A stretch of 21,739 nucleotides of DNA from a virus (Duplodnaviria > Heunggongvirae > Uroviricota > Caudoviricetes). The stretch is taken from IMG/VR virus record IMGVR_UViG_3300045988_065712; one strand, 5' to 3'. Positions 299 to 21,538 of this stretch are shown piece by piece. Made by a program: the position numbers and the translations under genes. How positions within the stretch are numbered: position 1 is the first letter of the stretch; each line of letters starts with the position of its first letter. Under the pieces are notes generated by a model that had not been told where the DNA came from, searched no databases, and saw nothing but the letters and a program-made list of their open reading frames with translations.

Positions 299-1462
299 TC
301 ACTCATCATCTTCTGTTTCGTACTCCACATCAGAAAGCCTGACCTCAAGCTCCAAGGACGTCGTGAAGCCGCTATTATTCAGAAAATGTGTCACCTTAGT
401 GATTGTCCAGTCCTGCTCGTCTATGACGCGCTTAAAGCCTGATACCTTGACCGGCGTTTCCGTGTAAATATCTGCCCGACCGGTAGCCAGGCTGATGGAG
501 AACTCCGCCACACCCCGTTGCAGTTTATCCCACTTCGCCTGAGCGGCGCGCATGGCCTGCGCTTTCGTGGCATATACCGTAGTCAGGGCAAAAACGTTGT
601 CAGCCTCACCGGCCATGTATTCACCTTCGCGCGCTTCCGGTACTTTTGGCGCTTTCTTCTGCGTGACCGGTTTTGCTTTCGGGTGCTCCAGTGCGCGCAG
701 GTGTTTCTCTTTCTTTTTGCGCTTCAGTTTTACCTTCTGCTTTTGTGGCTTCGGGTCTTTGGTGTGTAACCACTTTGCCGTTACGCCGGTATAGGCTCCA
801 CGGTCAGCAATCGCAAAATGATGGCGGTCGCCGTCGCTGCGGGTGATGGTAATCTGCGGGATTTTTTTACCGCTGGCCGTCACCCCCTGCCCCGCTTTGA
901 GAAACAACAGTTTTCCCATTTTTACCGACACCTCACCGCCGTTGCGTTCTGCAAGACGGGTCATGAATTTCGCATCAGACTCCTGCGACTGGTCGATGTG
1001 CGGGATTTTAATTCCGGCCAGTGACGGAGCGACACTGGCTTCCAGCTTATTACGGGAGGCTATCGCCTCAACAATCGCACCGAGCGTGGTGTCATGCCAT
1101 GAGCCTTCACGGCGGGAATTGAGCGTCCCGCGAAAATCTGCACTCCGGGCGCGGATGGTGACCACATCCGGTGCGCCCCGGTGTTCAACCTCATCAACGG
1201 TAAATTTCCCTTTGCATACCAGGGCAAAACCTTTCCAGCCGATATACACCGTCAGGACAGCGCCACGAACCGGCAGCCCGACCTGCCCGTCGGCATCGTT
1301 CAGTTCAATATCAAGCTGGTCAGCCTCAAAGCCCCGGTTATCCGTCAGGGTCATGCTCATCAGACGGTCGCTGATATTGCCGGTAATATCCCTGCTGTCG
1401 AGCATCAGCATGTAATCCGGCGTCAGCGTACTGCCTGCATCAAATGTCAGTGCATCCAGCAT
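299..1462 (-). CDS. D: Tail protein D (P2 gpD-like), 387 aa
   Basis: 387-aa ORF, same length as P2 gpD as recalled. Sits at the end of the FI-FII-E-T-U-D tail operon. Has a lysine-rich linker (KDPKPQKQKVKLKRKKKEKH). Confidence 0.88.
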   Translation of the reverse strand: MLDALTFDAGSTLTPDYMLMLDSRDITGNISDRLMSMTLTDNRGFEADQLDIELNDADGQVGLPVRGAVLTVYIGWKGFALVCKGKFTVDEVEHRGAPDVVTIRARSADFRGTLNSRREGSWHDTTLGAIVEAIASRNKLEASVAPSLAGIKIPHIDQSQESDAKFMTRLAERNGGEVSVKMGKLLFLKAGQGVTASGKKIPQITITRSDGDRHHFAIADRGAYTGVTAKWLHTKDPKPQKQKVKLKRKKKEKHLRALEHPKAKPVTQKKAPKVPEAREGEYMAGEADNVFALTTVYATKAQAMRAAQAKWDKLQRGVAEFSISLATGRADIYTETPVKVSGFKRVIDEQDWTITKVTHFLNNSGFTTSLELEVRLSDVEYETEDDE

Positions 1463-1941
1463 TATCCCGCCCCCGTCATACCCGTGAATTTAGTCGCCAT
1501 ACTGCCAGCCTTACCGATGAGCGATTCCGCCTGTTTACCGATATCGCCATAAAGCGCGGCCAGTGATTCATCAACGCGGGTGAGCGACAGCGTAAAATCA
1601 ATTTTCCGGGGTGTGCCGTCTGCAAAGAAAATACTCCCTGTTTCACTCACCTTGCTGATGACATACATGCCGTAAATCATGCCGGTGCCATCCAGCAACG
1701 GCCACGCCCGCCCCTCCTCTGCCATCAGCCTGAGCGTGGTCATCGTCAGCTTGCCGCCGGTCAGTTCGGGATAAAGCACACCGGCAAGCGTGATGTTTTC
1801 CTCACCCACACCGAGAAACTGAAAAGCGTCCCGTTTACCGATACGGGAATTTGACGGCCAGCGATAATCTGATTCACGCTGCATGGTCTGGTGTGGCAGC
1901 GTCTGGCGCATAAAAACAAACATACCTAACGCGAGCATCAT
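1462..1941 (-). CDS. U: Tail protein U (P2 gpU-like), 159 aa
   Basis: 159-aa ORF between T and D. Length and position match P2 gpU. Confidence 0.88.
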   Translation of the reverse strand: MMLALGMFVFMRQTLPHQTMQRESDYRWPSNSRIGKRDAFQFLGVGEENITLAGVLYPELTGGKLTMTTLRLMAEEGRAWPLLDGTGMIYGMYVISKVSETGSIFFADGTPRKIDFTLSLTRVDESLAALYGDIGKQAESLIGKAGSMATKFTGMTGAG

Positions 1942-1955
1942 TTTTCGTCACCTCC

Positions 1956-4403
1956 TTAACCGTCATGCATCATGCTGGCACGGGCGCGCGCACGTTTATC
2001 CCGCTCGTATTTTTCGAGCGCATCCTGTAACTGGCGGTCGAGCTGTGTCCCCGGCGCAGTACCACCCGTCAGGCTGATGTGATATTCGTTTTTACTCTGG
2101 TCTACATAAGAGCGGCCAGCCGGTGCCGTGACTGGCTGATAAGCCTGATAACCTGCATAAGAGCTGGTCGCCGGAATATAACCACCGCTGCCATACGTGG
2201 CGGCTTGAGTTCTGGCGGCGGTCTGGTCAAGTGTGTCTGACTCTTTGTTGATAACACCGAGTTTTTCCAGTACCCAGTCAATACCACTGCGCAGTTTGTT
2301 GAACGCATTAAGCGGCAGCATCAGCGCGTCAGCCAGTGCCTGCCCGAACATGACGCCCGTGTCACGGCAACGGTTCAGGGTGTCCTGGGTGGCTTTGACC
2401 GGGGCAATCAGGTTTTTAAACCACTGCCACGCGGCCTGTAACTTTTCACCCAGCCAGTCAAACACCGGTTTAAGTGGCGCGAACAGTTCCCCCACCGGCG
2501 CAAATGCCGCTTTCAGCCCTTCCACCACACCGCCAAAGAATGCGCTGACAGGCTCCCAGTATTTACGGATAAGCAACGCCCCGGCGACAATGGCGGCCAC
2601 CACGGCCACAACCGGCCAGCTAATCGCCCCGATGGCGGTTATAACAGCACTGCCAACCGTCGTGAAGATTGCCCCCATTGCGCCTGCTGCCGCGATGATG
2701 GCATTGATGCCGGTGATAACCGGCCAGGCTACGAGGCCAATGGCACCGATGACACCAATCAGTGCCAGTGCACCACCGACAATGATGCCGATGGTTGACG
2801 CCAGTGATTTGTTTTTCTGGATCCAGCCGTCGAGTTTTAACACATACTTTGTGGCCGTCTGCGTGAGATTACGCAGTGCGCCTTCCTGCTGGTCAAACAG
2901 GTCAGTCCCCACCGCCTCATAAGCGGACTGAAACTCCTTAAAGTCACCGCCGAGGTTGTCCTGCATGATATTTACCAGCTCTGCGGTCTTCCCGTCTGAG
3001 GCTTTAAACGCAGCGGTCAGTTTGTCCAGCTTTCCGGTTGAGGCGGCAGTCATCAGCACAGCGGCGGCTGAGCTGGCCTCCTCCCCGAAAATGGTTTTCA
3101 TGTATTCAGCCTGCTGGGCAGTACCGAGCCGGTTTTTCTCAAAACTGGCCTGCATTTCTTTCAGAATGGTAAATATTGGCCGGGTGTTTCCCTTGCTGTC
3201 TGAGGTTTTCACTCCAAGCTCTTTGAGTGCATCCCATGCTTTTCCCGTCGGTGCCTGCAGGCGGCTTAACACGGCACGGCTTCCCGTCCCCGCCATTGAG
3301 CCTGTGATTTTTGCATCATGCAGCGCCCCGACCATTGCGGCGGTTTCTTCAATGCTGACACCGGCATTTTTTGCCACAGGTGCGGCATAGGTCAGCGCAT
3401 CGCTCATGCCGTCAAAATCGGCGGCGGTTTTGTTCATCGTCATGGAGAGAACATCCCCGATATGAGCGACCTTATCGTTTGAAAGCTGAAAGGCGGATTT
3501 CATCCCCATCAGCAGGGCGGCGTTTTCTTCCATCGTGCGGCGGTTCGCCAGCGCCATATTCAGCGTGACCGGCGTTGCCGCCTGAATGGCATCAACATCC
3601 CCACCGGCTTTCGCAATGATAATCTGTGCACCGGCTGCATCATCTGCCGAGGCTGCGGTATTGTCGCCGAGCTGGCGCGCCTGCTTGCGGAGTGCGGTCA
3701 TTTCGGCGGAGTCTTTTGCCACTCCCAGCACAGCCTGCAATTCTGAGTTTTTCTGCGCAAACTCATAACCGGGCATCAGCAGCTTAACTCCGGCCATCGT
3801 TCCCGCAGCAGCAATCCCCACACCGGCAGCGCCCACCGAGACCATATTTCCGGCCAGCTCCTTTCCGGCCTGATAACGCTGTTTGACTGCGTTAAGTTTT
3901 GCCTGTTGCGCACTGACACGCGCCAGCGCGTCGCGCTGACGGTTAAGCTGTGCGGTGGTTTCACTGATACGGTTTTTCAGTCCCTGCTCATCATGTGCAA
4001 GATTGCGGGTATTAATTCCCACAGCGGCCAGTTCCCGCTGCTGGCGTTTAACGGAATCCGTCAGGCGGTTATATTTCGCCTGTAAGTCCTCCGCCGCACG
4101 CTTTGCGGATTCCAGCACTTTCGCCTGAGCACGGGTCGGACGTTCGGTGTTTTTAAACTGTGTGGCAAGGGCTTCGGCTTCCTGCCGAGCCTTTTCAAGT
4201 GCATGACCAGTCACGGCGAGCTGTGCACTGGTCTTGCGGAATCCCTCAATACGGGATGCCTGACCGTTCAGCTCGCGCAGTGATTTTTGTGTTTCCCGGA
4301 TATCCCCCGACAGCGACTTGCTCGCTGTGCGGATGGATTTAAACGGGCGGGATGCCTGGTCAACAGCCCTGAGCAATACCTGTAATTTTACATTGTTACT
4401 CAT
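1956..4403 (-). CDS. T: Tail tape-measure protein (P2 gpT-like), 815 aa
   Basis: 815-aa ORF with coiled-coil-like N-terminal half (many Q/R/E/A/L) and a Gly/Ala/Ile-rich hydrophobic segment (GGALALIGVIGAIGLVAWPVITGINAIIAAAGAMGAIF). Located directly after E/E'. Confidence 0.9.
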   Translation of the reverse strand: MSNNVKLQVLLRAVDQASRPFKSIRTASKSLSGDIRETQKSLRELNGQASRIEGFRKTSAQLAVTGHALEKARQEAEALATQFKNTERPTRAQAKVLESAKRAAEDLQAKYNRLTDSVKRQQRELAAVGINTRNLAHDEQGLKNRISETTAQLNRQRDALARVSAQQAKLNAVKQRYQAGKELAGNMVSVGAAGVGIAAAGTMAGVKLLMPGYEFAQKNSELQAVLGVAKDSAEMTALRKQARQLGDNTAASADDAAGAQIIIAKAGGDVDAIQAATPVTLNMALANRRTMEENAALLMGMKSAFQLSNDKVAHIGDVLSMTMNKTAADFDGMSDALTYAAPVAKNAGVSIEETAAMVGALHDAKITGSMAGTGSRAVLSRLQAPTGKAWDALKELGVKTSDSKGNTRPIFTILKEMQASFEKNRLGTAQQAEYMKTIFGEEASSAAAVLMTAASTGKLDKLTAAFKASDGKTAELVNIMQDNLGGDFKEFQSAYEAVGTDLFDQQEGALRNLTQTATKYVLKLDGWIQKNKSLASTIGIIVGGALALIGVIGAIGLVAWPVITGINAIIAAAGAMGAIFTTVGSAVITAIGAISWPVVAVVAAIVAGALLIRKYWEPVSAFFGGVVEGLKAAFAPVGELFAPLKPVFDWLGEKLQAAWQWFKNLIAPVKATQDTLNRCRDTGVMFGQALADALMLPLNAFNKLRSGIDWVLEKLGVINKESDTLDQTAARTQAATYGSGGYIPATSSYAGYQAYQPVTAPAGRSYVDQSKNEYHISLTGGTAPGTQLDRQLQDALEKYERDKRARARASMMHDG

Positions 4404-4823
4404 TCGTGTTTCCGCTTCGCCGGAGCGCCTTTTCGCGCCATGTGATGAGTTCGGTCAGGCTCATGGGATACAGTTCTGATGGCGGCCAGTGAAATATCAC
4501 TGCCACATCCGCCATCAGGTCATCGACCGAGAGATTTTTCGGAAACGTCACTGCACCGAGTTCGGCGACAAAAAACCGACCACCTTACCGGCCAGCGCCA
4601 CAAGGTCAGGCAGTTCCAGCGCGGCGATCTCCTGCTCGGTCAGCATCGGTGCCGTCATGCGCGGCAGCACTTTAATCAGTGCATCGACTTCGGAGTTTGC
4701 GACCGCAGCCAGACTGACACCGCGCAGCGTCCCGGCATTGGGTTTCATCAGCGTGACCTGTTCGATAACCTGTTCACCACGTTTAACCGGATTATCCAGG
4801 GTAATGACGTTTTCTTTGTTCAT
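4396..4823 (-). CDS. E+E': E+E' frameshift-extended tail chaperone (about 142 aa) made by -1 programmed ribosomal frameshift
   Basis: Slippery heptamer T TTT TTG in the zero frame on the minus strand (plus 4575..4569). I traced the -1 frame by hand from 4569 down to the first stop (TAA at 4398..4396) with no intervening stop, giving about 57 extra codons and a few bases of overlap with the T start. Total about 142 aa, matching P2 E+E' as recalled. Confidence 0.8.
4548..4823 (-). CDS. E: Tail assembly chaperone E (P2 gpE-like), 91 aa
   Basis: 91-aa ORF immediately upstream of the tape-measure gene. Ends ...GKVVGFLSPNSVQ and contains the slippery heptamer. Confidence 0.9.
   Translation of the reverse strand: MNKENVITLDNPVKRGEQVIEQVTLMKPNAGTLRGVSLAAVANSEVDALIKVLPRMTAPMLTEQEIAALELPDLVALAGKVVGFLSPNSVQ
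4569..4575 (-). other. Programmed -1 ribosomal frameshift slippery site (T TTT TTG)
   Basis: Minus-strand codons GGT TTT TTG read directly from the sequence near the 3' end of E. Conserved position for the tail-chaperone frameshift upstream of tape-measure genes. Confidence 0.8.
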
Positions 4824-5410: not shown

Positions 5411-6601
5411 TTAATTGCTGTTAACCGAGGTGACCAGATTTGCCAGGTATTTATCGGTAATACGCTGGCGCAGGGTCAGGTTTTCAAGAGGAGGCACCGG
5501 TGTATAGTCGTAGTCGATATACAGTTTTCCGGCCTTGAGGGTTTCCGCATCGTTGGATTCTTCGCTGAACCAGCAGGTCGCATCCACGATATAGCCGTTT
5601 GTTTTCAGCTCACGGAATTTGGCATTGATGCCGTCAACGATGTCGCGAATCAGCGTTGCGGTGATGGGCTTGTCCACCGCCCACATGTGCGCCTCAGCCA
5701 TCGTGTCGGCCAGCACCTGCGCGGTGCGGGTGTAGTTTTCAAAGAGGAACAGCGGGTCATCAGAGCAGGTACGGTTACCCCAGAAGCGGAAACCGTCGCG
5801 GCGAATCAGCGTAGTGACGCCTGACTCGTTAAGCAGGTCAGCATCGGTGCCGGACTCCTGCAAATCCCAGAATACAGATGCGCTGATGCCGGTAACACCG
5901 TTCACCCCGACGTTGGACAGCGTTTTATGCCAGCCCTGCTCCTGGTCGATTTTAGCGCGCAGCCCCAGCGCACGAGCGGTGGCATACGCGGTGGCGGTGG
6001 TACTGGTGACCGTATCCCATGCGAGGAAATCCGGCCAGATGACCATCAGCTCACGCTGGCTGAAATTCTGGCGGTAGGCTTTCACCTCGGAAATGGTCTT
6101 ACAGCCCCATGCGCTGATATACCCGAAAGCGCGCAGCTTCTGACAGACTGATGCCAGTGCTACAGCCACCTCTTTGGTATCCAGTCCCGGCACACCAAGA
6201 ATACGCGGTTTAACACCGGTTACCGACTCTGCCGCCAGCAGGGCTTTCAGTCCGGTGTACTGACCGTTTTCGTCAGTGGTGCCGATGATATTGGAAACGG
6301 TCTGCGCAAGTTTCGTTTCTTCGTCGTCGCCGGTGCCGTCCTCCACGCGCACAACAACGGTGACCGGTTTTGACTGGTCGGCGATAGCCTGCAACGATGC
6401 CGCCAGCGTGCCTTTTTTACCGGCCTTTGCAATTGCGCTCTGCACATTGGTAATCAGCACCGGTTTATTGAGGGGGAAGGTTTCCGCATCCGCATCGCTG
6501 GCCGTGCAGACCATGCCAACAATGGCAGTGGATACGGTGGAAATGACACGGGTGCCGTCGTTAATCTCCAGCACCTGCACGCCGTGATGATAGTCACTCA
6601 T
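5411..6601 (-). CDS. FI: Contractile tail sheath protein (P2 gpFI-like), 396 aa
   Basis: 396-aa ORF, first gene of the sheath-tube-chaperone-tape-measure block. Length matches P2 FI. Confidence 0.9.
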   Translation of the reverse strand: MSDYHHGVQVLEINDGTRVISTVSTAIVGMVCTASDADAETFPLNKPVLITNVQSAIAKAGKKGTLAASLQAIADQSKPVTVVVRVEDGTGDDEETKLAQTVSNIIGTTDENGQYTGLKALLAAESVTGVKPRILGVPGLDTKEVAVALASVCQKLRAFGYISAWGCKTISEVKAYRQNFSQRELMVIWPDFLAWDTVTSTTATAYATARALGLRAKIDQEQGWHKTLSNVGVNGVTGISASVFWDLQESGTDADLLNESGVTTLIRRDGFRFWGNRTCSDDPLFLFENYTRTAQVLADTMAEAHMWAVDKPITATLIRDIVDGINAKFRELKTNGYIVDATCWFSEESNDAETLKAGKLYIDYDYTPVPPLENLTLRQRITDKYLANLVTSVNSN

Positions 6602-6660
6602 CCGTTTAACTCCGTGGTTAATGGGTGAGTGATATTTTCAGTTGTGCCGGAGATGTCAGG

Positions 6661-7254
6661 CTATTTGTCCCGGTTGGCTAAGGGATGACACAATTTATTC
6701 TTTGTCGCTGATGAGGGGAATTTTTTATAGAGCGTGGACAGGCCAATATCAAAAATCAGCGCCACGCGTTGACGTGATTCACCCGCAGCCAGCAACCGTC
6801 CTGCCTGTTCCCACTCACTCGCGGTGAGCTTCGGACGTCTGCCACCAATACGACCTTTAGCTCTGGTCGCTTCCAGTCCGGCGCGTGTCCGCTCGACAAT
6901 GAGTTCTCGTTCCATTTCAGCCAGGGCACCCATCACATGAAAGAAAAAACGCCCCATCGGCGTGCTGGTATCAATAGCATCCGTCAGGCTGCGAAAATTA
7001 ACGCCGCGTTCGCGCAGCTCCTCAACCAGAATGACCAGATGCCGCATACTACGCCCCAGCCTGTCCAGCTTCCAGACCACCAGTGTATCCCCCTCCGATA
7101 ATGTCCTGAGCAGTTTTTTCAGTCCCGGTCGGTCGGACTTAGTGCCGCTGATTTTATCCTCAAAAATCAGCTCACATCCTGCGCACTCCAGCGCGTTACG
7201 CTGCAATTCCGTGTTCTGGTCATTTGTTGACACGCGTACATAGCCAATAAGCAT
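6661..7254 (-). CDS. Site-specific DNA invertase, small serine recombinase of the Hin/Gin/Cin/Pin family
   Basis: N-terminus MLIGYVRVSTNDQNTELQRNALE... carries the catalytic-serine motif (VRVSTNDQ). Also GDTLVVWKLDRLGRS, FFHVMGALAEMERELIVERT and a C-terminal HTH-like segment (LSTLYKK). Start set at the third Met of the ORF-track ORF (7254), which has an AGGGGG Shine-Dalgarno about 6 nt upstream. The track start at 7260 is the alternative. Confidence 0.9.
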   Translation of the reverse strand: MLIGYVRVSTNDQNTELQRNALECAGCELIFEDKISGTKSDRPGLKKLLRTLSEGDTLVVWKLDRLGRSMRHLVILVEELRERGVNFRSLTDAIDTSTPMGRFFFHVMGALAEMERELIVERTRAGLEATRAKGRIGGRRPKLTASEWEQAGRLLAAGESRQRVALIFDIGLSTLYKKFPSSATKNKLCHPLANRDK

Positions 7255-7309
7255 GAGCATCCCCCTGAATAAAAACCGGAGATGATGCCAGTTACCCGTT
7301 GTCTCTGCA

Positions 7310-7335
7310 TTTTCATAAACGTTGGTTTGGGGGAA
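7310..7335. other. Candidate invertase crossover site (ttttcatAAACG-TT-GGTTTgggggaa)
   Basis: Contains the AAACx-NN-xGTTT core typical of Hin/Gin-family recombination sites. Lies about 55-80 bp upstream of the invertase start, where hix/gix-type sites sit, and at the 5' boundary of the promoterless fibre-tip cassette. Overall match to hix/gix is only partial. Confidence 0.4.
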
Positions 7336-7755
7336 GGCTCTGCACTGCCTGTTGGTGTGCCCGTTCCGTGGCCCTTAGAAACACCACCAACGGGCTGGCT
7401 AAAATGCAATGGTGCAGCATTTTCTTCTGAAATGTATCCCAAACTGGCAAAAGCCTACCCCACCAATAAATTACCGGATTTACGCGGTGAATTTATCCGT
7501 GGCTGGGATGATGGGCGCGGGATTGATGCGGGACGTACCCTGCTTTCAGGGCAGGATGGTACAAGTTTTTCTCATTACGGAGGTAATTTCGACATTGGGT
7601 CTGGTCATTCAATCAATAACTATGACCAAATTGTTTCTAACCAACCAGGATTTTCCCGTTTTTCATTTGCAGGGCCTTCACGAGGTGATGGGGTTAATTA
7701 TGTAACCATTCGTCCTCGTAACATTGCGTTTAATTATATCGTAAGGGCGGCATGA
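7322..7755 (+). CDS. Promoterless alternative tail-fibre C-terminal (receptor-binding tip) cassette, about 145 codons, opposite orientation to H
   Basis: ORF 7282..7755 encodes ...GEGSALPVGVPVPWPLETPPTGWLKCNGAAFSSEMYPKLAKAYPTNKLPDLRGEFIRGWDDGRGIDAGR..., a tail-collar-type fibre tip like the variable tip segments of Mu/P1-type invertible tail-fibre systems. No Shine-Dalgarno or promoter. The N-terminal 13 codons of the track ORF are read-through of the invertase promoter region. Confidence 0.7.
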
Positions 7756-7774
7756 AAACGTTCGTTTCGAACAG
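7749..7774. other. Second crossover-like site (ggcatgAAAACG-TT-CGTTTcgaacag) overlapping the cassette stop codon
   Basis: 12-mer aaacgttcgttt (7756..7767) is an 11/12 match to aaacgttggttt (7317..7328), with the same TT core on the same strand, so a direct repeat. Perfect 5-bp dyad AAACG/CGTTT around the core. Confidence 0.3.
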
Positions 7775-7803
7775 GAGGAGTAGCGGAGGGCTATGTTGCT
7801 TAG

Positions 7804-7851
7804 TTTGAAAATAGCTGGTCTTGCTGATGCGCATTGATGTAGCAAGACCAG
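7804..7851 (-). terminator. Probable rho-independent terminator of the V-W-J-I-H-G tail operon (11-bp stem, U-rich tail on minus strand)
   Basis: Perfect inverted repeat ctggtcttgct (7815..7825) and agcaagaccag (7841..7851) with a 15-nt loop. On the minus strand it lies 7 nt downstream of the G stop codon and is followed by CUAUUUUC. Confidence 0.5.
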
Positions 7852-7857
7852 TATGGT

Positions 7858-8226
7858 CTAAAGTTCCGGGATGACAGGCCAGTTAACATGCTCAGGGTCG
7901 GTTGTTACATCAACAGCCTTAACCTGATTCTTATATAAAAGCCACGCCGAAAGTTTAGCTCTGTTGGCATCGCTGATTTCACCCAGCATCAGCTCTGTGC
8001 GCCAGTCGAGCATAATTGCATCAGCGGCGGACAGTAATCGCTGTCGCTCATTTTCAGCAGCCTGGATGAGTTGTTCATGAGTCGGTGGGGGATTAATAAT
8101 TGCCATAGCCTCACTTCTGGTGATTGGCACAAGCCCTTCTTTGATAAAAGCATCCTGTGTGCCATACGCATCGTAGGCATATACGACGTTATTTTCATCT
8201 TTGTAATACTTCATCATTGTTATCAT
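7858..8226 (-). CDS. G: Tail fibre assembly chaperone (P2 gpG/Tfa-like function), 122 aa
   Basis: 122-aa ORF immediately downstream of the tail-fibre gene, with ATGA start/stop overlap with H. C-terminal ...HVNWPVIPEL is typical of Tfa chaperones. Shorter than, and unlike, P2 G as recalled. Confidence 0.8.
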   Translation of the reverse strand: MITMMKYYKDENNVVYAYDAYGTQDAFIKEGLVPITRSEAMAIINPPPTHEQLIQAAENERQRLLSAADAIMLDWRTELMLGEISDANRAKLSAWLLYKNQVKAVDVTTDPEHVNWPVIPEL

Positions 8227-9740
8227 TTTTTATCCACCTCTACCCAGGTAACATCTGACACTGTTCCTGAAAACTGCTGCACAATATAGGTCGCACCGGC
8301 AGGAACCATGAATGCGATAGTTGCTCTTTGCCCTGCAAGATTTGTTGTCTGAGAGCCGCGAAAATTAGCCGAATTACCATCCACATTAACGTTGGCGCTC
8401 AGAAATGAACTACCGTCAGACAGCACCGCATTGACGCTTACAAATATGGCGAAAGACTGGCTGTTGGTGTATACGACACCGAGATTTCTAGATTTCATTC
8501 CGCATTGACCAAACAACCCTTTCATATCTGAATAGTTTTGTGATGCAGCAAGTGATGATGCAGCAACACCAGATTCTGTTGATGTTCTGGAATCAGATAC
8601 GCGGATAATTCCCTTGTTTGTAGTGGTTGCATCATTAGTCTTGCCTTGCAGAGCTACAATATCCGCATAATTCATCGCTGCCGCTTTTGCTGTTGCAGCA
8701 AGCGTTTCAGATTCGGATACCCTTGATGATGTAAGTTGAACAATTCCTTTCTGTGTCGTAGTTGAATCCTGAGTTTTGTTTTGCAAAGATTTTATGTCCG
8801 TATAGTTTTGCGCGACAGCATTAGCTGTGGCTGCAATATCCTCTGCACCCGATACCCGCGATGAGGTTAACCGGACTAAACCCACCTGTGTTGTTGATGC
8901 GTCTTTAATACCAAGGTATGCAAGAAGACCGGCAACATCCTTCCCACTCAAATGAGTCAGCGTCTCATCCAGTGGCTGCTTACCTGACAGCGCATTGTTA
9001 ATGGTGGTACTGAATTTCGGGTCATTGTTAATGGCTGCGGCAATTTCTTTCAGTGTGTCCAGCGTGGCTGGCGCACCGTTAATCAGAGCGGTAATAGCGG
9101 CCTGAACAAACTCAGTGGTCGCAATCCGCGTGGTGTTATTTCCTGCGGCAGGCGTCGGCGCTTTTGGTTCTCCGGTAAATGTCGGATTATGTTTCTGTGC
9201 ATACTGGGTATGAGGATCCTGTGCGGCAATGTGGTTTCTCATCTGGTCATCCACATACAGCCTTAATTCCAGGACTTCATCATCCACGTATTTACGGGTC
9301 GCCAGTACCACCGACGGGTCGATTTTCAGCGTGATAGCTTCGGTATTCGTGACAACCAGAATCATGCGGATAGTCTGGGTACGACCGCTGCCTTCCTGCA
9401 ACTGCGGTTTGTACGTTTCCGGGCAGTTCGCCACCGCAATGAGTACGCCTTCATCATCATAAAGCCCAATCTCACGGATCCAGAATCCGCCCTCGTTCTC
9501 AGGGATGATTTGCTCCGCAATAATCTGGCTCTGGTTGTTCGGGTCAACACTCAGAAGATTCAGCGGCGCGATGCGTTTCTGGTTAATCAGTTTTGTCTGT
9601 GCCGGGTCTGGTGTCGGCAAGACACCATTCGCATCACCAACTGCCATTTGCGTCAGATTCAGCTTACTGCCGAGCATCGTCGCGTTAGCCAGCCGTGCTG
9701 CGCCCTGATTAGTCAGAATGGCGTAGTATTTCACTGTCAT
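8223..9740 (-). CDS. H: Tail fibre protein (P2 gpH-like N-terminus, divergent C-terminal half), 505 aa
   Basis: N-terminal region (AVGDANGVLPTP..., GGFWIREIGLYDDEGVLIAVANCPETYKPQLQEGSGRTQTIRMILVV) resembles the conserved baseplate-attachment domain of P2 H. Central triple repeat and a distinct C-terminal domain. Positioned between I and G. Confidence 0.88.
   Translation of the reverse strand: MTVKYYAILTNQGAARLANATMLGSKLNLTQMAVGDANGVLPTPDPAQTKLINQKRIAPLNLLSVDPNNQSQIIAEQIIPENEGGFWIREIGLYDDEGVLIAVANCPETYKPQLQEGSGRTQTIRMILVVTNTEAITLKIDPSVVLATRKYVDDEVLELRLYVDDQMRNHIAAQDPHTQYAQKHNPTFTGEPKAPTPAAGNNTTRIATTEFVQAAITALINGAPATLDTLKEIAAAINNDPKFSTTINNALSGKQPLDETLTHLSGKDVAGLLAYLGIKDASTTQVGLVRLTSSRVSGAEDIAATANAVAQNYTDIKSLQNKTQDSTTTQKGIVQLTSSRVSESETLAATAKAAAMNYADIVALQGKTNDATTTNKGIIRVSDSRTSTESGVAASSLAASQNYSDMKGLFGQCGMKSRNLGVVYTNSQSFAIFVSVNAVLSDGSSFLSANVNVDGNSANFRGSQTTNLAGQRATIAFMVPAGATYIVQQFSGTVSDVTWVEVDKK
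8511..8900 (-). repeat. Three tandem copies of a roughly 45-codon (135-bp) repeat inside the tail-fibre shaft of H
   Basis: Protein residues about 281-410: ASTTQVGLVRLTSSRVSGAEDIAATANAVAQNYTDIKSLQNKTQD / STTTQKGIVQLTSSRVSESETLAATAKAAAMNYADIVALQGKTND / ATTTNKGIIRVSDSRTSTESGVAASSLAASQNYSDMKGLFGQ. The DNA-level periodicity is visible. Confidence 0.65.
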
Positions 9741-10348
9741 GCGTTTACTCTCAGGTTATCAATTAAATGAATGGCCGAGGCCGGGAAATAATCCCCTCCG
9801 ACAATAATGGCCTCCGGGGTGTAGGGATAAACCGTCAGGGCGTCGCCGTGATAGCATCCTGCACCGGCAAAAATGTTGCCGGTTGTACTTAAACTGATAG
9901 CCAGTCCCGTCAGATGGCGGCTTGCAGGTTTTGCATCAGCAACGAGACGCTCCAGCTCCTGATACATTTCCTCGGTAATACCCTGCTCAAGCACGCCAAC
10001 AACGATGCGGAACGTCCCCGGCTCCTCGTTGAGCTGCCACCACTCCCTCACCTCAATCAGATAGCCGAGCGGCTCCACCACACGGCGAATCGCACCAATA
10101 GTGCCCTTATGGCAGTGAATGAAATACGCATCGCGGATAACAGCGCGTTTTGTCGCTTCCGGCCACTTATCATCCCAGCGGTCAACCGAAAATGACCACG
10201 CCAGCCACGGCAGCAGATTTGCCGGACAGGTATCCGGGTTCCACAGCTCACGAATACTGACCGGCGTTTTTTCAATTTCCGCACAGGCTCTTGCGGCGGC
10301 GACTTCAAGCGGTGATGAGCCGGTCGGCAGCAGTCGCGAATCACTCAT
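9737..10348 (-). CDS. I: Baseplate protein (P2 gpI-like), 203 aa
   Basis: ORF between J and H with 4-nt overlap with H. Resembles the P2 gpI N-terminus as recalled. Longer than the 176 aa of P2 I. Confidence 0.85.
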   Translation of the reverse strand: MSDSRLLPTGSSPLEVAAARACAEIEKTPVSIRELWNPDTCPANLLPWLAWSFSVDRWDDKWPEATKRAVIRDAYFIHCHKGTIGAIRRVVEPLGYLIEVREWWQLNEEPGTFRIVVGVLEQGITEEMYQELERLVADAKPASRHLTGLAISLSTTGNIFAGAGCYHGDALTVYPYTPEAIIVGGDYFPASAIHLIDNLRVNA

Positions 10349-18673: not shown

Positions 18674-20475
18674 ATGACCATCACCACAGACACCACTCTT
18701 TTACACGACCCGCGTCGTCAGGCGGCGCTGCTGTACTGGCAGGGGTTTTCCGTGCCGCAGATTGCCGCCATGTTGCAGATGAAACGTCCGACGGTGCAGA
18801 GCTGGAAACAGCGCGACGGCTGGGACAGCGTTGCCCCCATCAGCCGTGTCGAAATGAGTCTGGAAGCGCGACTGACCCAGCTCATCATCAAACCGCAGAA
18901 AACCGGCGGTGACTTCAAGGAAATTGACCTGCTGGGACGCCAGATTGAACGACTGGCACGGGTAAACCGCTACAGTCAGACCGGCAACGAGGCAGACCTT
19001 AATCCGAACGTCGCTAACCGCAACAAAGGCGGGCGTCGCAAACCGAAAAAGAATTTTTTCAGTGACGAGGCCATCGAAAAGCTGGAGCAGATTTTCTTTG
19101 AGCAGTCTTTCGAATATCAGTTGCACTGGTATCGCGCCGGGCTTGAGCACCGCATCCGCGATATCCTGAAATCCCGCCAGATTGGCGCGACGTTTTATTT
19201 TTCCCGCGAGGCGCTGCTGCGCGCCCTGAAAACCGGTCATAACCAGATTTTTCTGTCGGCCAGTAAAACGCAGGCGTATGTGTTCCGCGAATACATCATC
19301 GCCTTTGCCCGGCTGGTTGACGTTGACCTGACCGGTGACCCGATTGTCCTGGGCAATAACGGCGCAAAACTGATTTTTCTCGGCACCAACTCCAACACCG
19401 CACAGAGCCATAACGGCGACCTGTACGTCGACGAGATTTTCTGGATCCCGAATTTTCAGGTACTGCGTAAGGTGGCATCAGGTATGGCCTCACAGAGTCA
19501 CCTGCGCTCGACCTATTTCTCCACCCCGTCCACGCTGGCGCACGACGCCTACCCGTTCTGGTCGGGTGAACTGTTCAACCGGGGACGCGCCAGCGCCGCC
19601 GAACGCGTGGAAATCGACGTCAGTCATAACGCCCTTGCCGGAGGTCTTCTCTGTGCGGACGGCCAGTGGCGGCAGATTGTCACCATTGAGGACGCCCTGA
19701 AAGGCGGCTGCACGCTGTTCGACATTGAGCAGCTCAAACGTGAAAACAGCGCCGACGATTTTAAAAACCTGTTCATGTGTGAATTTGTTGACGACAAGGC
19801 GTCGGTGTTCCCGTTCGAGGAGCTGCAACGCTGCATGGTCGACACGCTGGAAGAATGGGAAGACTATGCGCCGTTTGCCGCGAATCCGTTCGGCTCCCGC
19901 CCGGTCTGGATTGGTTACGACCCGTCACACCGTGGCGACAGCGCCGGATGCGTGGTGCTGGCACCGCCGGGGCCGGATGCGTGGTGCTGGCACCGCCGGT
20001 GGTGGCCGGTGGCAAATTCAGAATACTTGAGCGTCACCAGTGGAAAGGCATGGACTTTGCCACCCAGGCTGAATCCATCCGCAAACTCACCGAAAAATAT
20101 AACGTCGAATACATCGGTATTGATGCCACCGGCCTCGGTGTCGGCGTGTTCCAGCTCGTGCGCTCGTTCTATCCCGCCGCGCGCGACATCCGCTACACGC
20201 CGGAAATGAAAACCGCAATGGTGCTCAAGGCAAAAGACGTCATCCGCCGTGGCTGTCTGGAATATGACGTCAGCGCCACCGACATCACCAGCTCGTTTAT
20301 GGCTATCCGCAAGACCATGACCAGCAGCGGACGCAGCGCCACCTATGAGGCCAGCCGCAGCGAGGAAGCCAGCCACGCCGACCTCGCCTGGGCGACCATG
20401 CACGCCCTGTTAAATGAGCCACTCACCGCGGGTATCAGCACTCCGCTGACATCCACCATTCTGGAGTTTTACTGA
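18674..20475 (+). pseudogene. P: Terminase large subunit (P2 gpP-like), frame disrupted by a 29-bp tandem duplication at 19942..19999
   Basis: Track shows two overlapping fragments: 18644..20209 (N-terminal part, then a W/R/C-rich nonsense tail) and 19855..20475 (C-terminal part in another frame). Start set at MTITTDTTLL (ATG 18674, GAGGT Shine-Dalgarno). Span minus 29 bp is 1773 nt, i.e. 590 codons plus stop, the P2 gpP length. Confidence 0.85.
19942..19999 (+). repeat. Imperfect 29-bp tandem duplication inside P (28/29 identical)
   Basis: 19942..19970 cgccggatgcgtggtgctggcaccgccgg and 19971..19999 ggccggatgcgtggtgctggcaccgccgg, compared base by base. The peptide GCVVLAPP is encoded twice. 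Confidence 0.92.
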
Positions 20476-21538
20476 TGAGCAAGAAAAAAGGGAAAACACC
20501 GCAACCTGCGGCAAAAACAATGACCGCCAGCGCCCCGAAAATGGAGACATTCACCTTTGGTGAGCCGGTGCCGGTACTCGACCGCCGTGACATTCTGGAT
20601 TACATCGAGTGCATCAGTAACGGCAGATGGTATGAGCCGCCGGTCAGCTTTACCGATGGTATGAGCCACCGGTCAGCTTTACCGGTCTGGCAAAAAGCCT
20701 GCGTGCTGCCGTGCATCACAGTTCACCGATTTACGTCAAACGTAATATTCTGGCTTCAACGTTTATTCCGCACCCGTGGCTTTCGCAACAGGATTTCAGC
20801 CGCTTTGTGCTGGATTTTCTGGTGTTCGGTAATGCGTTTCTGGAAAAGCGTTACAGCACCACCGGTAAGGTCATCAGACTGGAAACCTCACCGGCAAAAT
20901 ATACCCGCCGTGGCGTGGAGGAGGATGTTTACTGGTGGGTGCCGTCCTTCAACGAACCGACAGCCTTCACGCCCGGCTCCGTGTTTCACCTGCTGGAGCC
21001 GGATATTAATCAGGAGCTGTACGGCCTGCCGGAATATCTCAGCGCCCTTAACTCTGCCTGGCTGAATGAGTCGGCCACACTGTTCCGCCGCAAGTATTAC
21101 GAAAACGGCGCGCATGCCGGATACATCATGTACGTTACCGATGCCGTGCAGGATCGCAACGATATCGAAATGCTTCGCGAAAACATGGTTAAGTCGAAAG
21201 GCCGCAACAACTTTAAAAACCTGTTTCTCTATGCCCCACAGGGGAAAGCCGACGGCATTAAAATTATCCCGCTCAGTGAAGTGGCAACGAAGGACGATTT
21301 TTTTAATATCAAAAAAGCCAGCGCCGCTGACCTGCTGGACGCGCACCGCATCCCCTTTCAGTTGATGGGAGGCAAGCCGGAGAACGTCGGGTCGCTGGGT
21401 GATATTGAGAAAGTGGCAAAGGTCTTTGTCCGCAATGAGCTTATCCCGTTACAGGACAGGATTCGGGAAATAAACGGCTGGCTCGGTCAGGAGGTCATCC
21501 GCTTTAAAAACTACTCACTGGACACAGACAACGGCTGA
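20475..21538 (+). pseudogene. Q: Portal protein (P2 gpQ-like), frame disrupted by a 29-bp tandem duplication at 20627..20684
   Basis: Track shows 20475..21065 (N-terminal 62 aa, then nonsense) and 20711..21538 (rest of portal in another frame). Span minus 29 bp is 1035 nt, i.e. 344 codons plus stop, the P2 gpQ length. ATG overlaps the P stop (TGATG). Confidence 0.85.
20627..20684 (+). repeat. Imperfect 29-bp tandem duplication inside Q (28/29 identical)
   Basis: 20627..20655 atggtatgagccgccggtcagctttaccg and 20656..20684 atggtatgagccaccggtcagctttaccg. Single G/A difference at 20639 vs 20668. Confidence 0.92.

Follow-up and report, generated by a model that had tools for sequence, protein, structure and literature searches.

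The window, namely the whole 21,739-nt stretch of DNA analysed here (IMG/VR virus record IMGVR_UViG_3300045988_065712), includes the tail-fibre locus of a P2-like E. coli prophage. An invertase gene is located between the tail-fibre chaperone gene and FI, and the flanking genes are in P2 order. In the P2 record, pF and FI adjoin fun(Z), which immediately precedes the FI promoter; this agrees with the placement of this locus in the P2 Z/fun slot by the initial annotation. DNA invertases in the Z/fun hotspot were noted earlier (bioRxiv 10.1101/2024.10.15.618418). The features of the locus are as follows.

6661..7254, minus strand: serine DNA invertase of the Din family (Gin/Cin/Hin/Pin), 197 aa, assigned from its Pfam domains and its identity to Gin and Cin
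7165..7236, minus strand: candidate Fis-dependent recombinational enhancer, nt 19-90 of the invertase gene, aligned with the P1 enhancer
7310..7335, plus strand: crossover site A (invertase-proximal), TTTTCATAAACG TT GGTTTGGGGGAA, centre 7322-7323, from comparison with relatives
7323..8913, both strands: invertible segment of 1,591 bp exchanged by A x C; its in-silico inversion matches contig L011
7323..7761, plus strand: silent tail-collar tip cassette (coding part 7324-7755), bounded by the centres of A and B, with a Pfam Collar domain
7749..7774, plus strand: crossover-type site B, GGCATGAAAACG TT CGTTTCGAACAG, centre 7761-7762, from half-site comparison
7811..7854, minus strand: hairpin directly 3' of the chaperone gene, followed by AGCUAUUUUC, from RNA folding
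7858..8226, minus strand: tail-fibre assembly chaperone (G-like), 122 aa, with Pfam Caudo_TAP at residues 45-121
8223..8912, minus strand: variable part of H, tip 1 (IKDASTTQ to the end), currently expressed, defined by the homology break
8901..8926, plus strand: crossover site C within H, GTCTTTAATACC AA GGTATGCAAGAA, centre 8913-8914, from comparison with relatives
8915..9740, minus strand: constant N-terminal part of H, residues 1 to about 276, with the Pfam Phage_tail_fib N-terminal domain

The invertase ORF (6661-7260, minus strand) contains the Pfam domains Resolvase (E = 1e-51) and HTH_7 (E = 1e-12). The start in public gene calls is the ATG at 7254 (197 aa); with the other candidate start, the ATG just upstream at 7260, the protein would have 199 aa. 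The protein shares 80% identity with Mu Gin, 78% with P1 Cin, and 80% with the invertase of a P1-like plasmid, which confirms the Pin/Gin/Hin-type assignment made initially. Alignment to the Gin structures (3UJ3 and 4M6F) showed that the catalytic Ser9 is present within the motif VRVSTNDQ. Recombinases of the Din family have an N-terminal catalytic domain with the serine near residue 9-10 and a C-terminal helix-turn-helix, and the same organization was found here. With both domains, the catalytic serine, and 78-80% identity to Gin and Cin, the invertase is intact; moreover, the exact protein is encoded by public contigs with the segment in either orientation. The product called ‘recombinase family protein’ at this position is a tail-fibre invertase, and is neither an integrase nor a defence gene. 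In the P1 record, nt 19-90 of cin are marked as the enhancer used in Cin-mediated inversion. The invertase gene is 81% identical to cin in nt 19-90 and 68% in nt 91-300, which suggests that nt 19-90 might be the enhancer; the assignment is suggestive only, because this interval also encodes conserved residues.

Site A matches the invertase-proximal inverted-repeat arm of the E. coli relatives, and site C is inverted relative to A and B. The central dinucleotide (TT/AA) is common to A and C. Two inverted 26-bp sites with 12-bp half-sites and the same 2-bp core are typical of the Din family, and A and C have this arrangement; they also compare well with gix and cix taken from the Mu and P1 records. 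In two P2-like relatives from E. coli (L001 and L002), the same invertase-proximal site and H-site occur as inverted repeats. Compared with the H-site of the relatives, the outer half of site C is kept; whereas the inner half has diverged (7/12 bases matching), and this poor conservation counts against a working switch. ATACC-type half-sites, which may be compared with the weak inner half of C, are also found in P1 cixR. The partner site in H was located only through comparison with relatives. A generic repeat search of 6600-9800 found no convincing inverted repeat, because A and C are alike in only 14/26 bases, with a longest identical run of 5 bp. Site B is direct to A and inverted to C, and has a dyad-symmetric core with the same central dinucleotide as both. 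Its left half is that of an inter-cassette site of the P1-like shufflon, and its right half is the invertase-proximal half-site of two cassette-less relatives (L008 and L003). The core pattern AWACSWWSGTWT, which was derived after the sites had been seen, has three matches only in the 21.7-kb window (A, B, and C), against 0.11 expected by chance.

Gene H (8223-9740, minus strand) is composed of a constant part and a variable tip. The constant part shares 98-99% identity with H of the E. coli P2-like relatives, and the homology stops at 8910, at the site centre. Tip 1 was also found attached to other fibre constant parts at an identical junction (...NLG/IKDAS, the slash marking the joint). The cassette ORF (7282-7755, plus strand, 157 aa) has a phage tail Collar domain (Pfam, E = 1e-14) on the strand opposite to H, as expected for the silent collar-type tip that had been proposed. 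This ORF had been described as start-less; in-frame ATGs do exist at 7282 and 7285, though they fall in the spacer that separates the invertase gene from site A and do not belong to the invertible segment. Coding sequence for the tip starts at 7324, right after the crossover centre. In-silico inversion between A and C (7323-8913) brought the collar tip in frame with the H constant part, giving a protein of 419 aa.

The 419-aa H has an exact counterpart in the public protein P0002 from two E. coli records, and in both of them the accession of the exact invertase is three loci from that of P0002. Over 13,260 bp, contig L011 (GCA_034326785.1) follows the computed inverted form of the window colinearly, without a gap and with 3 mismatches (99.977% identity), and contig L006 is identical to the un-inverted window (100%). 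The flipped form is also present in SRR30325256, and the un-flipped form in GCA_027227605.1. The breakpoints of this natural inverted isomer are sites A and C, and the sites of L011 are exact reciprocal hybrids (C-outer + A-inner, and C-inner + A-outer). The window form was found in 18 contigs and the flipped form in three, from different assemblies. Both orientations with a conservative exchange at the core, as is typical of Din-family inversion, were thus observed across different isolates and assemblies; heterogeneity within a culture was not seen, which counts against an active switch. Scans with the flipped-state junction AAACSTTGGTATTAAAGAC gave only chance matches from unrelated taxa in the species-representative genomes, and none in IMG/VR. 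Four metagenome contigs with a longer junction pattern were not inversion products; in these, other fibre genes are joined to tip 1.

We consider that the locus is an active Din-family (Gin/Cin/Pin-type) tail-fibre tip inversion switch in the Z/fun slot of a P2-like E. coli prophage, with a probability of about 85%. The Din-type invertible switch postulated in the initial annotation is upheld by the intact invertase, the partner site C, the in-frame fusion, and the two orientations with reciprocal hybrid sites. In the proposed mechanism, the invertase (6661-7254) would pair site A (7310-7335) with the inverted site C in H (8901-8926), and cutting at the common TT/AA dinucleotide would invert the 1,591-bp segment 7323-8913. 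The window orientation would provide the H constant part with tip 1, followed by the 122-aa chaperone gene; after the flip, the constant part would be joined to the collar tip in a 419-aa fibre with a different receptor-binding end. The flip is probably catalysed by the resident invertase, presumably in a Fis- and enhancer-dependent manner like its relatives, and the two tips may give different host ranges. Another Din invertase of the host could have flipped the segment in trans, which counts against this reading. The switch region had been placed at 6661-7857, which does hold the invertase and the cassette; this extent is too short, as the segment reaches 8913. The 7.3-8.5 kb suggested for testing should likewise be 7.32-8.91 kb, the second site being in H at 8901-8926. 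The locus is better annotated as one invertible unit (7323-8913) plus the invertase, with H products of 505 and 419 aa.

In the window, a frame-shifting 29-bp tandem duplication is present in each of two genes, terminase gene P and portal gene Q, within the intervals 19943-19999 and 20626-20684. Ten related contigs have intact P (590 aa) and Q (344 aa), and the best complete-genome matches have single copies. Exact look-ups of the frameshifted P and Q products in public data found nothing. If the duplications are genuine and not artefacts of contig joining, this copy could not package DNA, and therefore the switch would have no phage-level consequence here.

The 122-aa chaperone gene is inside the invertible segment and is the sole chaperone gene in the locus. 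As the only Caudo_TAP gene is the one at 7858-8226, the statement that the cassette has no chaperone of its own was correct. The 122-aa product weakly resembles Mu U in the C-terminal domain of the latter (PDB 5YVQ), and accompanies tip 1 in other prophage types. The hairpin directly downstream (7811-7854; -20.5 kcal/mol, z = -3.98 against shuffles) is likely a terminator. It was missed by a consensus terminator scan, probably as its loop is longer than the scan allows. The 14-codon ORF at 7793-7837 (plus strand) exists as reported initially; its reading as a chaperone remnant was rejected, because it overlaps this hairpin and the spacer is conserved in relatives without the cassette. The spacer 7755-7857 is 95.5% (L003) and 99.6% (L008) identical to the sequence 3' of the same chaperone gene in these two.

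Tail-fibre chaperones have a conserved C-terminal domain in common, and cross-complementation has been reported. In the P2-like relatives, the collar-type cassette is followed, directly or after a second cassette, by a same-strand chaperone gene of about 200 aa (Caudo_TAP_N + Caudo_TAP). This TfaE-type chaperone is the usual partner of the collar tip in related loci, and is absent from the window prophage. The segment might thus flip and yet be half functional: the collar-tipped H could not fold without the TfaE-type chaperone, the 122-aa gene would be antisense, and the particles would be fibre-defective unless a chaperone is supplied in trans from another prophage or a P1-like plasmid. This is a serious possibility, to which we give slightly less than even odds; of the two options in the initial annotation, a streamlined system and a partly degenerate one, either may apply. 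It is favoured by the pairing of the collar cassettes with a same-strand chaperone gene of about 200 aa in the relatives; in the P1-like phage-plasmid p50579417_1 (L004), a single gene of this kind serves a shufflon of six tips. Moreover, the C-terminal motif RPRNIAFNYIVRAA is present on all the collar cassettes, where it could plausibly act as a shared docking element. The flipped isomer that was observed has its only chaperone gene antisense to H and behind the hairpin, so that this state may give defective fibres, which counts against a fully working switch; the commoner occurrence of the window orientation (18 contigs versus 3) points in the same direction. However, the very same tip is expressed in L004 while the sole chaperone gene there is antisense, and therefore the arrangement is not unique to a degenerate locus. 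The 122-aa protein also has the Caudo_TAP domain, the conserved C-terminal domain of tail-fibre chaperones.

Site B might also be used, in which case the locus would be a three-site mini-shufflon with four isomers rather than a two-state switch. The first two isomers would have tip 1 with the chaperone gene in cis, and the collar tip with the chaperone gene antisense; the other two would have a truncated, tipless H of 282 aa, and the collar tip with the chaperone gene in cis. A second inversion via site B would thereby bring the sole chaperone gene to a position 3' of the collar-tipped H. All four isomers were confirmed in silico. The dyad-symmetric core of B, its central dinucleotide, and the origin of its halves (a functional-looking P1-like inter-cassette site on the left, and the L008 invertase-proximal half-site on the right) are consistent with such use, and experiments in EPEC revealed a P2-like prophage shufflon with three repeats whose four variants coexist (PMC4272514). 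The predicted junctions that mark the use of site B are GGCATGAAAACGTTGGTATTAAAGAC and CTGTTCGAAACGAAGGTATGCAAGAA. However, B x C junctions were absent from 5,426 complete E. coli genomes (synthetic junction query) and from IMG/VR (pattern scan), although these negatives are weak because site C in its un-inverted form occurs only three times in IMG/VR. The protein collection also had no exact match to the 282-aa H, and all three contigs with the 419-aa H (3/3) have the simple A x C isomer. No inversion using site B, as would be seen in a Min-type system with more than two isomers, was found in the data searched, in which few copies of this prophage are sampled; the use of a third site is a tentative reading with the balance tilted against it.

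A fossil cassette, with no partner site left in H and a segment fixed in its present orientation, had been offered as the alternative to a switch. The diverged inner half of site C, the absent second chaperone, and the relative L008, which lacks the cassette and has a frameshifted invertase, would all suit such a locus. That reading presupposes no partner site in H; however, site C was found, the window invertase is intact, and near-identical prophages contain the exact predicted inversion product, both as protein and as DNA with reciprocal hybrid sites. Since this product occurs among public assemblies of E. coli, the switch flipped in the recent past, and a fossil is very improbable. An origin of the two orientations from homologous or illegitimate recombination or from assembly error can hardly be credited: the sites are alike in only 14/26 bases with a longest run of 5 bp, which disfavours homologous recombination; strands were exchanged conservatively and reciprocally at the central dinucleotide; the repeats are far below the assembler k-mer length, and the flipped form is in three independent records.

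The inversion switch resembles the classical Din systems Mu G/Gin, P1 C/Cin, and e14 P/Pin, which also have inverted 26-bp sites with a 2-bp core, one of them in the tail-fibre gene, and alternative 3' ends fused in frame. The gene order is that of Mu (constant fibre part, segment, and an invertase transcribed away from the segment). In contrast, each of the two tips in the Mu and P1 segments is paired with a chaperone gene (Sv-U and U'-S'v); whereas the window has two tips and one Caudo_TAP gene in the segment. A chaperone for each tip is usual in the classical phage segments, though it does not define the recombination system. The window also differs from the classical segments in its third site, which bounds the silent tip, and in its location in the Z/fun slot of a P2-like prophage. 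The loci of EPEC E2348/69, phage pro483, and the E. coli prophages L001 and L002 belong to the same P2-like family and occupy the same place, with the tail-fibre genes on one side and FI on the other. In the invertase and site A, these P2-like invertible loci share about 95% DNA identity with the window. Two chaperone genes are present in L001, L002, and pro483; whereas the window has only one. Inversion of the tail-fibre genes at P2-like prophage loci of EPEC E2348/69, among them a three-repeat version with four coexisting variants, was established by sequencing and PCR (Goldberg et al. 2014, PMC4272514). Experimental evidence for invertible fibres in P2-like prophages, three-site versions among them, thus already exists.

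The L004 shufflon has tip-only collar cassettes between crossover sites, as in the window, and is of the p15B Min type, which is characterized by more than two crossover sites bounding tip-only cassettes; sites A, B, and C correspond to this pattern. The ‘Min-type’ label for the P1-like plasmid shufflon is, we presume, that of Sandmeier et al. 1992. The window cassette resembles one of the six units: window 7319-7767 is 98.9% identical to L004 4820-5268, and conserved N- and C-terminal flanks are common to the cassettes of both. The N-terminal motif LGEGSALPVGVPVPWP and the C-terminal motif are shared by the window cassette and ten other collar cassettes. L004 differs in having six tips and at least six sites, against one such cassette and three sites in the window, and in having the chaperone of about 200 aa. 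Tip 1 with the 122-aa chaperone is a module unrelated to the L004 shufflon, and none of the 5,426 complete E. coli genomes has tip 1, the 122-aa chaperone, and a P1-type collar cassette together. In L008, the cassette is absent exactly from the centre of A to the centre of B, and the remaining hybrid site is composed of A-left and B-right; by sequence, this is consistent with either an A x B deletion or a cassette insertion.

The collar cassette may be regarded as a tip-only unit like those of the p15B/Min shufflons, with A and B as its boundaries; it might have been gained here, or lost in the relatives, via recombination at the A/B sites, with P1-like phage-plasmids as a possible cassette pool. 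In an integron-like version, a Din invertase would have excised the unit from a multi-tip shufflon on a P1-like phage-plasmid and inserted it into a P2-like prophage that had one tip and a single crossover site, with this site as the target; this version is rather unlikely. The breakpoints of module homology between P2-like prophages and P1-like phage-plasmids are within a few bases of the site centres.

The general picture of invertible tail fibres, which dates back to the work on Mu, P1, p15B, and the P2-like prophages of EPEC, is unchanged. The locus is a natural example in which inversion is able to work with a rather degenerate partner site. A tip-only cassette in a locus without its usual chaperone also raises a testable question on the specificity of tail-fibre chaperones. 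If the integron-like reading is true, serine invertases would move receptor-binding modules between unrelated phages besides flipping them, and the leftover third site would permit a second inversion that brings the sole chaperone gene in cis with the new tip.

The window comprises a P2-like prophage late region that runs in reverse. The minus-strand order is D, U, T, E, FII, FI, the switch locus, H, I, J, W, V, S, R, the lysis genes, L, M, N and O; P and Q are on the plus strand of the window. Besides the sheath gene FI, four features were found between FI and the tail-fibre genes, H included:

5411-6601, minus strand: sheath gene FI
6661-7260, minus strand: invertase ORF (Pfam Resolvase and HTH_7)
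7282-7755, plus strand: collar-tip ORF (phage tail Collar domain)
7858-8226, minus strand: chaperone gene, 122 aa (Caudo_TAP)
8223-9740, minus strand: tail-fibre gene H, 505 aa

The P2 record places fun(Z) directly upstream of the FI promoter; therefore the initial annotation, which had put a serine invertase and a silent collar tip in the Z/fun slot of P2, named that slot correctly, and the features are present where it had placed them. The gene-finder call of the cassette ORF (156-157 aa) begins at ATGs within 7282-7323, in the spacer that separates the invertase gene from site A and outside the invertible segment, and therefore the silent tip is listed publicly as a free-standing 'phage tail protein'. 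Separately, relative to P2, 29-bp tandem duplications cause frameshifts in the terminase large-subunit gene P (19943-19999, perfect) and the portal gene Q (20626-20684, 96% match). At both spots a single copy is present in related contigs and in complete E. coli genomes, where P and Q are intact, and exact look-ups of the frameshifted products gave no record. An origin of the duplications as contig-join artefacts seems likelier than a biological one, because their length is identical in two adjacent genes; if genuine, they would make this prophage copy packaging-defective.

The invertase has 197 aa counted from the ATG at 7254, and shares 80% identity with Mu Gin, 78% with P1 Cin and 80% with the invertase of a P1-like phage-plasmid. 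Its alignment with the Gin crystal-structure sequences covers the full length, and the catalytic serine is present (within VRVSTNDQ); this residue together with the two domains bears out the assignment to the Pin/Gin/Hin type. The stretch annotated in the P1 record as enhancer of Cin-mediated inversion aligns with nucleotides 19-90 of the gene. Identity to P1 cin is 81% over this stretch and 68% over the following 210 nt, which fits a candidate conserved enhancer, inseparable from the coding constraint on the same stretch.

A generic repeat search of the locus revealed no convincing repeat. The E. coli relatives L001 and L002 contain a complete segment with two tips and two chaperones, bounded by a 27-nt inverted repeat with one arm adjoining the invertase and the other within H. 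Three crossover sites were placed in the window:

7310-7335: site A, TTTTCATAAACG TT GGTTTGGGGGAA, the relatives' invertase-proximal arm, kept in the window
7749-7774: site B, GGCATGAAAACG TT CGTTTCGAACAG, directly 3' of the cassette stop codon, in direct orientation to A
8901-8926: site C, plus strand GTCTTTAATACC AA GGTATGCAAGAA, inside H

Homology between the H of the window and that of the relatives ends at 8910, inside the 26-bp site C. Only the inner half of C has diverged from the H-site of the relatives, which the outer half matches; C shares its central dinucleotide with A and is inverted with respect to it. The core pattern AWACSWWSGTWT, written post hoc, has only three matches in 21.7 kb (A, B and C), against 0.11 expected. 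The same layout is seen in gix and cix of the Mu and P1 records, and an ATACC-type half-site is also present in P1 cixR.

In silico inversion of 7323-8913 gave a reading frame that runs from the constant part of H (...LLAYLG) into the collar cassette (LGEGSALPVG...). The resulting product of 419 aa is exactly the public protein P0002, found in two E. coli records, both with the exact invertase accession three loci away. The P0002 contig L011 (GCA_034326785.1) follows the computed inverted window for 13,260 bp without a gap and with 3 mismatches; L006 matched the un-inverted window at 100%. The outer sites of L011 are exact reciprocal hybrids (TTCTTGCATACC TT GGTTTGGGGGAA and GTCTTTAATACC AA CGTTTATGAAAA). 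The 505-aa form was found on 18 contigs and the 419-aa form on 3. On the sequence of these junctions, conservative site-specific exchange is the explanation of the two orientations. The flipping would be the work of the resident invertase, or possibly of another Din enzyme of the host. Homologous recombination or misassembly is not credible as the origin of the flip, since A and C are identical at only 14 of 26 positions and their longest uninterrupted match, around the core, is 5 bp. The occurrence of both orientations in separate assemblies demonstrates that the switch inverts in nature. The proposed invertible host-range switch is supported by the partner site C in H and by the natural flipped isomer, and the alternative of a fossil cassette lacking such a site is rejected.

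If site B is also used, four isomers were enumerated in silico. The first, seen in the window, has the chaperone gene in cis to tip 1 (the variable end of H, 8223-8912); the second has the collar tip with the chaperone gene antisense, as in L011; the third has a tipless H of 282 aa; the fourth has the collar tip followed by a silent tip 1, with the chaperone gene in cis. The third and fourth were not found in the public protein collection, the 5,426 complete E. coli genomes or IMG/VR, where this prophage is sparsely sampled.

Sequence comparison resolves the locus into parts from at least three sources. P2-like E. coli prophages and phage pro483 share about 95% identity with the invertase, with site A and with the first ~220 nt of the cassette. 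The stretch 7319-7767, which takes in the whole cassette from the centre of A to that of B, is 98.9% identical to one unit of the shufflon of a P1-like phage-plasmid (L004), which has six tips and one chaperone. L003, another P2-like prophage, matches the region 7755-9075 at 95.5% identity; this region covers tip 1, the gene for the 122-aa chaperone, and the spacer as far as the right half of B. In L003 a recombinase gene directly follows the chaperone gene. Another relative, L008 (GCA_050022875.1), is 99.6% identical over 7756-9900 and only 95.5% in the invertase region; it is without the collar cassette, which is missing exactly between the A and B centres. Its sole invertase-proximal site (6967-6992) consists of A-left and B-right, TTTTCATAAACG TT CGTTTCGAACAG, and its invertase gene (7048-7700) is frameshifted by a 1-nt deletion. 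The hybrid site would be the expected A/B deletion scar, and equally a target for an excised cassette circle; L008 is either a locked single-tip derivative or a precursor. Tip 1 is also found on other fibre scaffolds, always with the junction ...NLG|IKDAS at the crossover site. Because every module breakpoint lies within a few bases of a crossover core, the pattern points to putative module exchange by the invertase, while recombination by other means at these short conserved motifs might also have produced it.

Several related loci show further arrangements. In L003 (E. coli 23AR0998, 987-4460), tip 1 and the 122-aa chaperone are followed by a 183-aa recombinase gene without an alternative tip, and then by DinI-like genes, a hemerythrin-domain gene, a second recombinase and the sheath gene; an invertible segment with a single tip would yield no more than an on/off fibre. 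Tip 1 with its chaperone also occurs on unrelated scaffolds with non-P2-like baseplate genes, in metagenome contigs (L031-L034) and E2348/69 (L005, 4001-5069); in L005 and L033 the module adjoins a truncated invertase remnant. A different P2-like lineage in Klebsiella pneumoniae and other Enterobacteriaceae (L013-L018, 5001-8783) has a 419-aa H 99% identical to the flipped product of the window; behind this H come a second collar cassette, a pair of convergent chaperone genes, a Gp53-like tip and an invertase. This type of locus, a three-site shufflon with three tips, was found on 14 contigs.

Eleven cassettes of the collar type were compared, taken from the window, from the P1-like shufflon, from the E. 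coli relatives and from one Klebsiella/Enterobacteriaceae locus. They share an N-terminal flank (LGEGSALPVGVPVPWP...GR.LLS) and a C-terminal flank (RPRNIAFNYIVRAA) with the same final 14 residues (window 7711-7755; ends in L004, L001, L002 and L013), and variability is confined to the middle 40-70 residues. The conserved C-terminus might serve all of them for chaperone docking or for trimerisation. In P2-like relatives, the collar cassette is followed, directly or past a second cassette, by a same-strand TfaE-type chaperone of ~200 aa, which is missing from the window; the initial annotation had noted that the cassette lacks a chaperone gene of its own. A reading of the 14-codon ORF (7793-7837), which it called a stub, as a chaperone remnant was rejected, because the ORF overlaps a hairpin (7811-7854; -20.5 kcal/mol, z = -4.0) and the chaperone-side spacer is also present in L003 and L008, both without the cassette. 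The hairpin lies directly downstream of the chaperone gene and is followed by a U-rich tract; the spacer is most readily interpreted as a terminator region that adjoins the right half of site B. The 122-aa chaperone gene is antisense to H in the flipped isomer, and the P1-like phage-plasmid has the same tip in the expressed position with its sole chaperone gene antisense. The collar-tipped fibre might fold unaided, might need the 122-aa protein, or might fold only if a TfaE-type protein is supplied in trans, and the odds that the flipped state is productive in this prophage by itself are roughly even.

The mechanism is the same as in the Din-family inversion systems of the Mu G, P1 C and e14 P segments, and the cassette organisation resembles a Min-type multi-inversion region. 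Phage pro483 has the same arrangement by annotation. Sequencing and PCR have shown invertible tail-fibre loci in the P2-like prophages of EPEC E2348/69; one of these loci combines three inverted repeats with three alternative C-termini, and four variants of it coexist (PMC4272514). The Z/fun hotspot was also noted earlier as a place of DNA invertases and fibre swaps (bioRxiv 10.1101/2024.10.15.618418). Draft assemblies and metagenomes contain the particular combination seen in the window, which was absent from the 5,426 complete E. coli genomes. The novelty is limited to the layout of one chaperone, three sites and a borrowed cassette.
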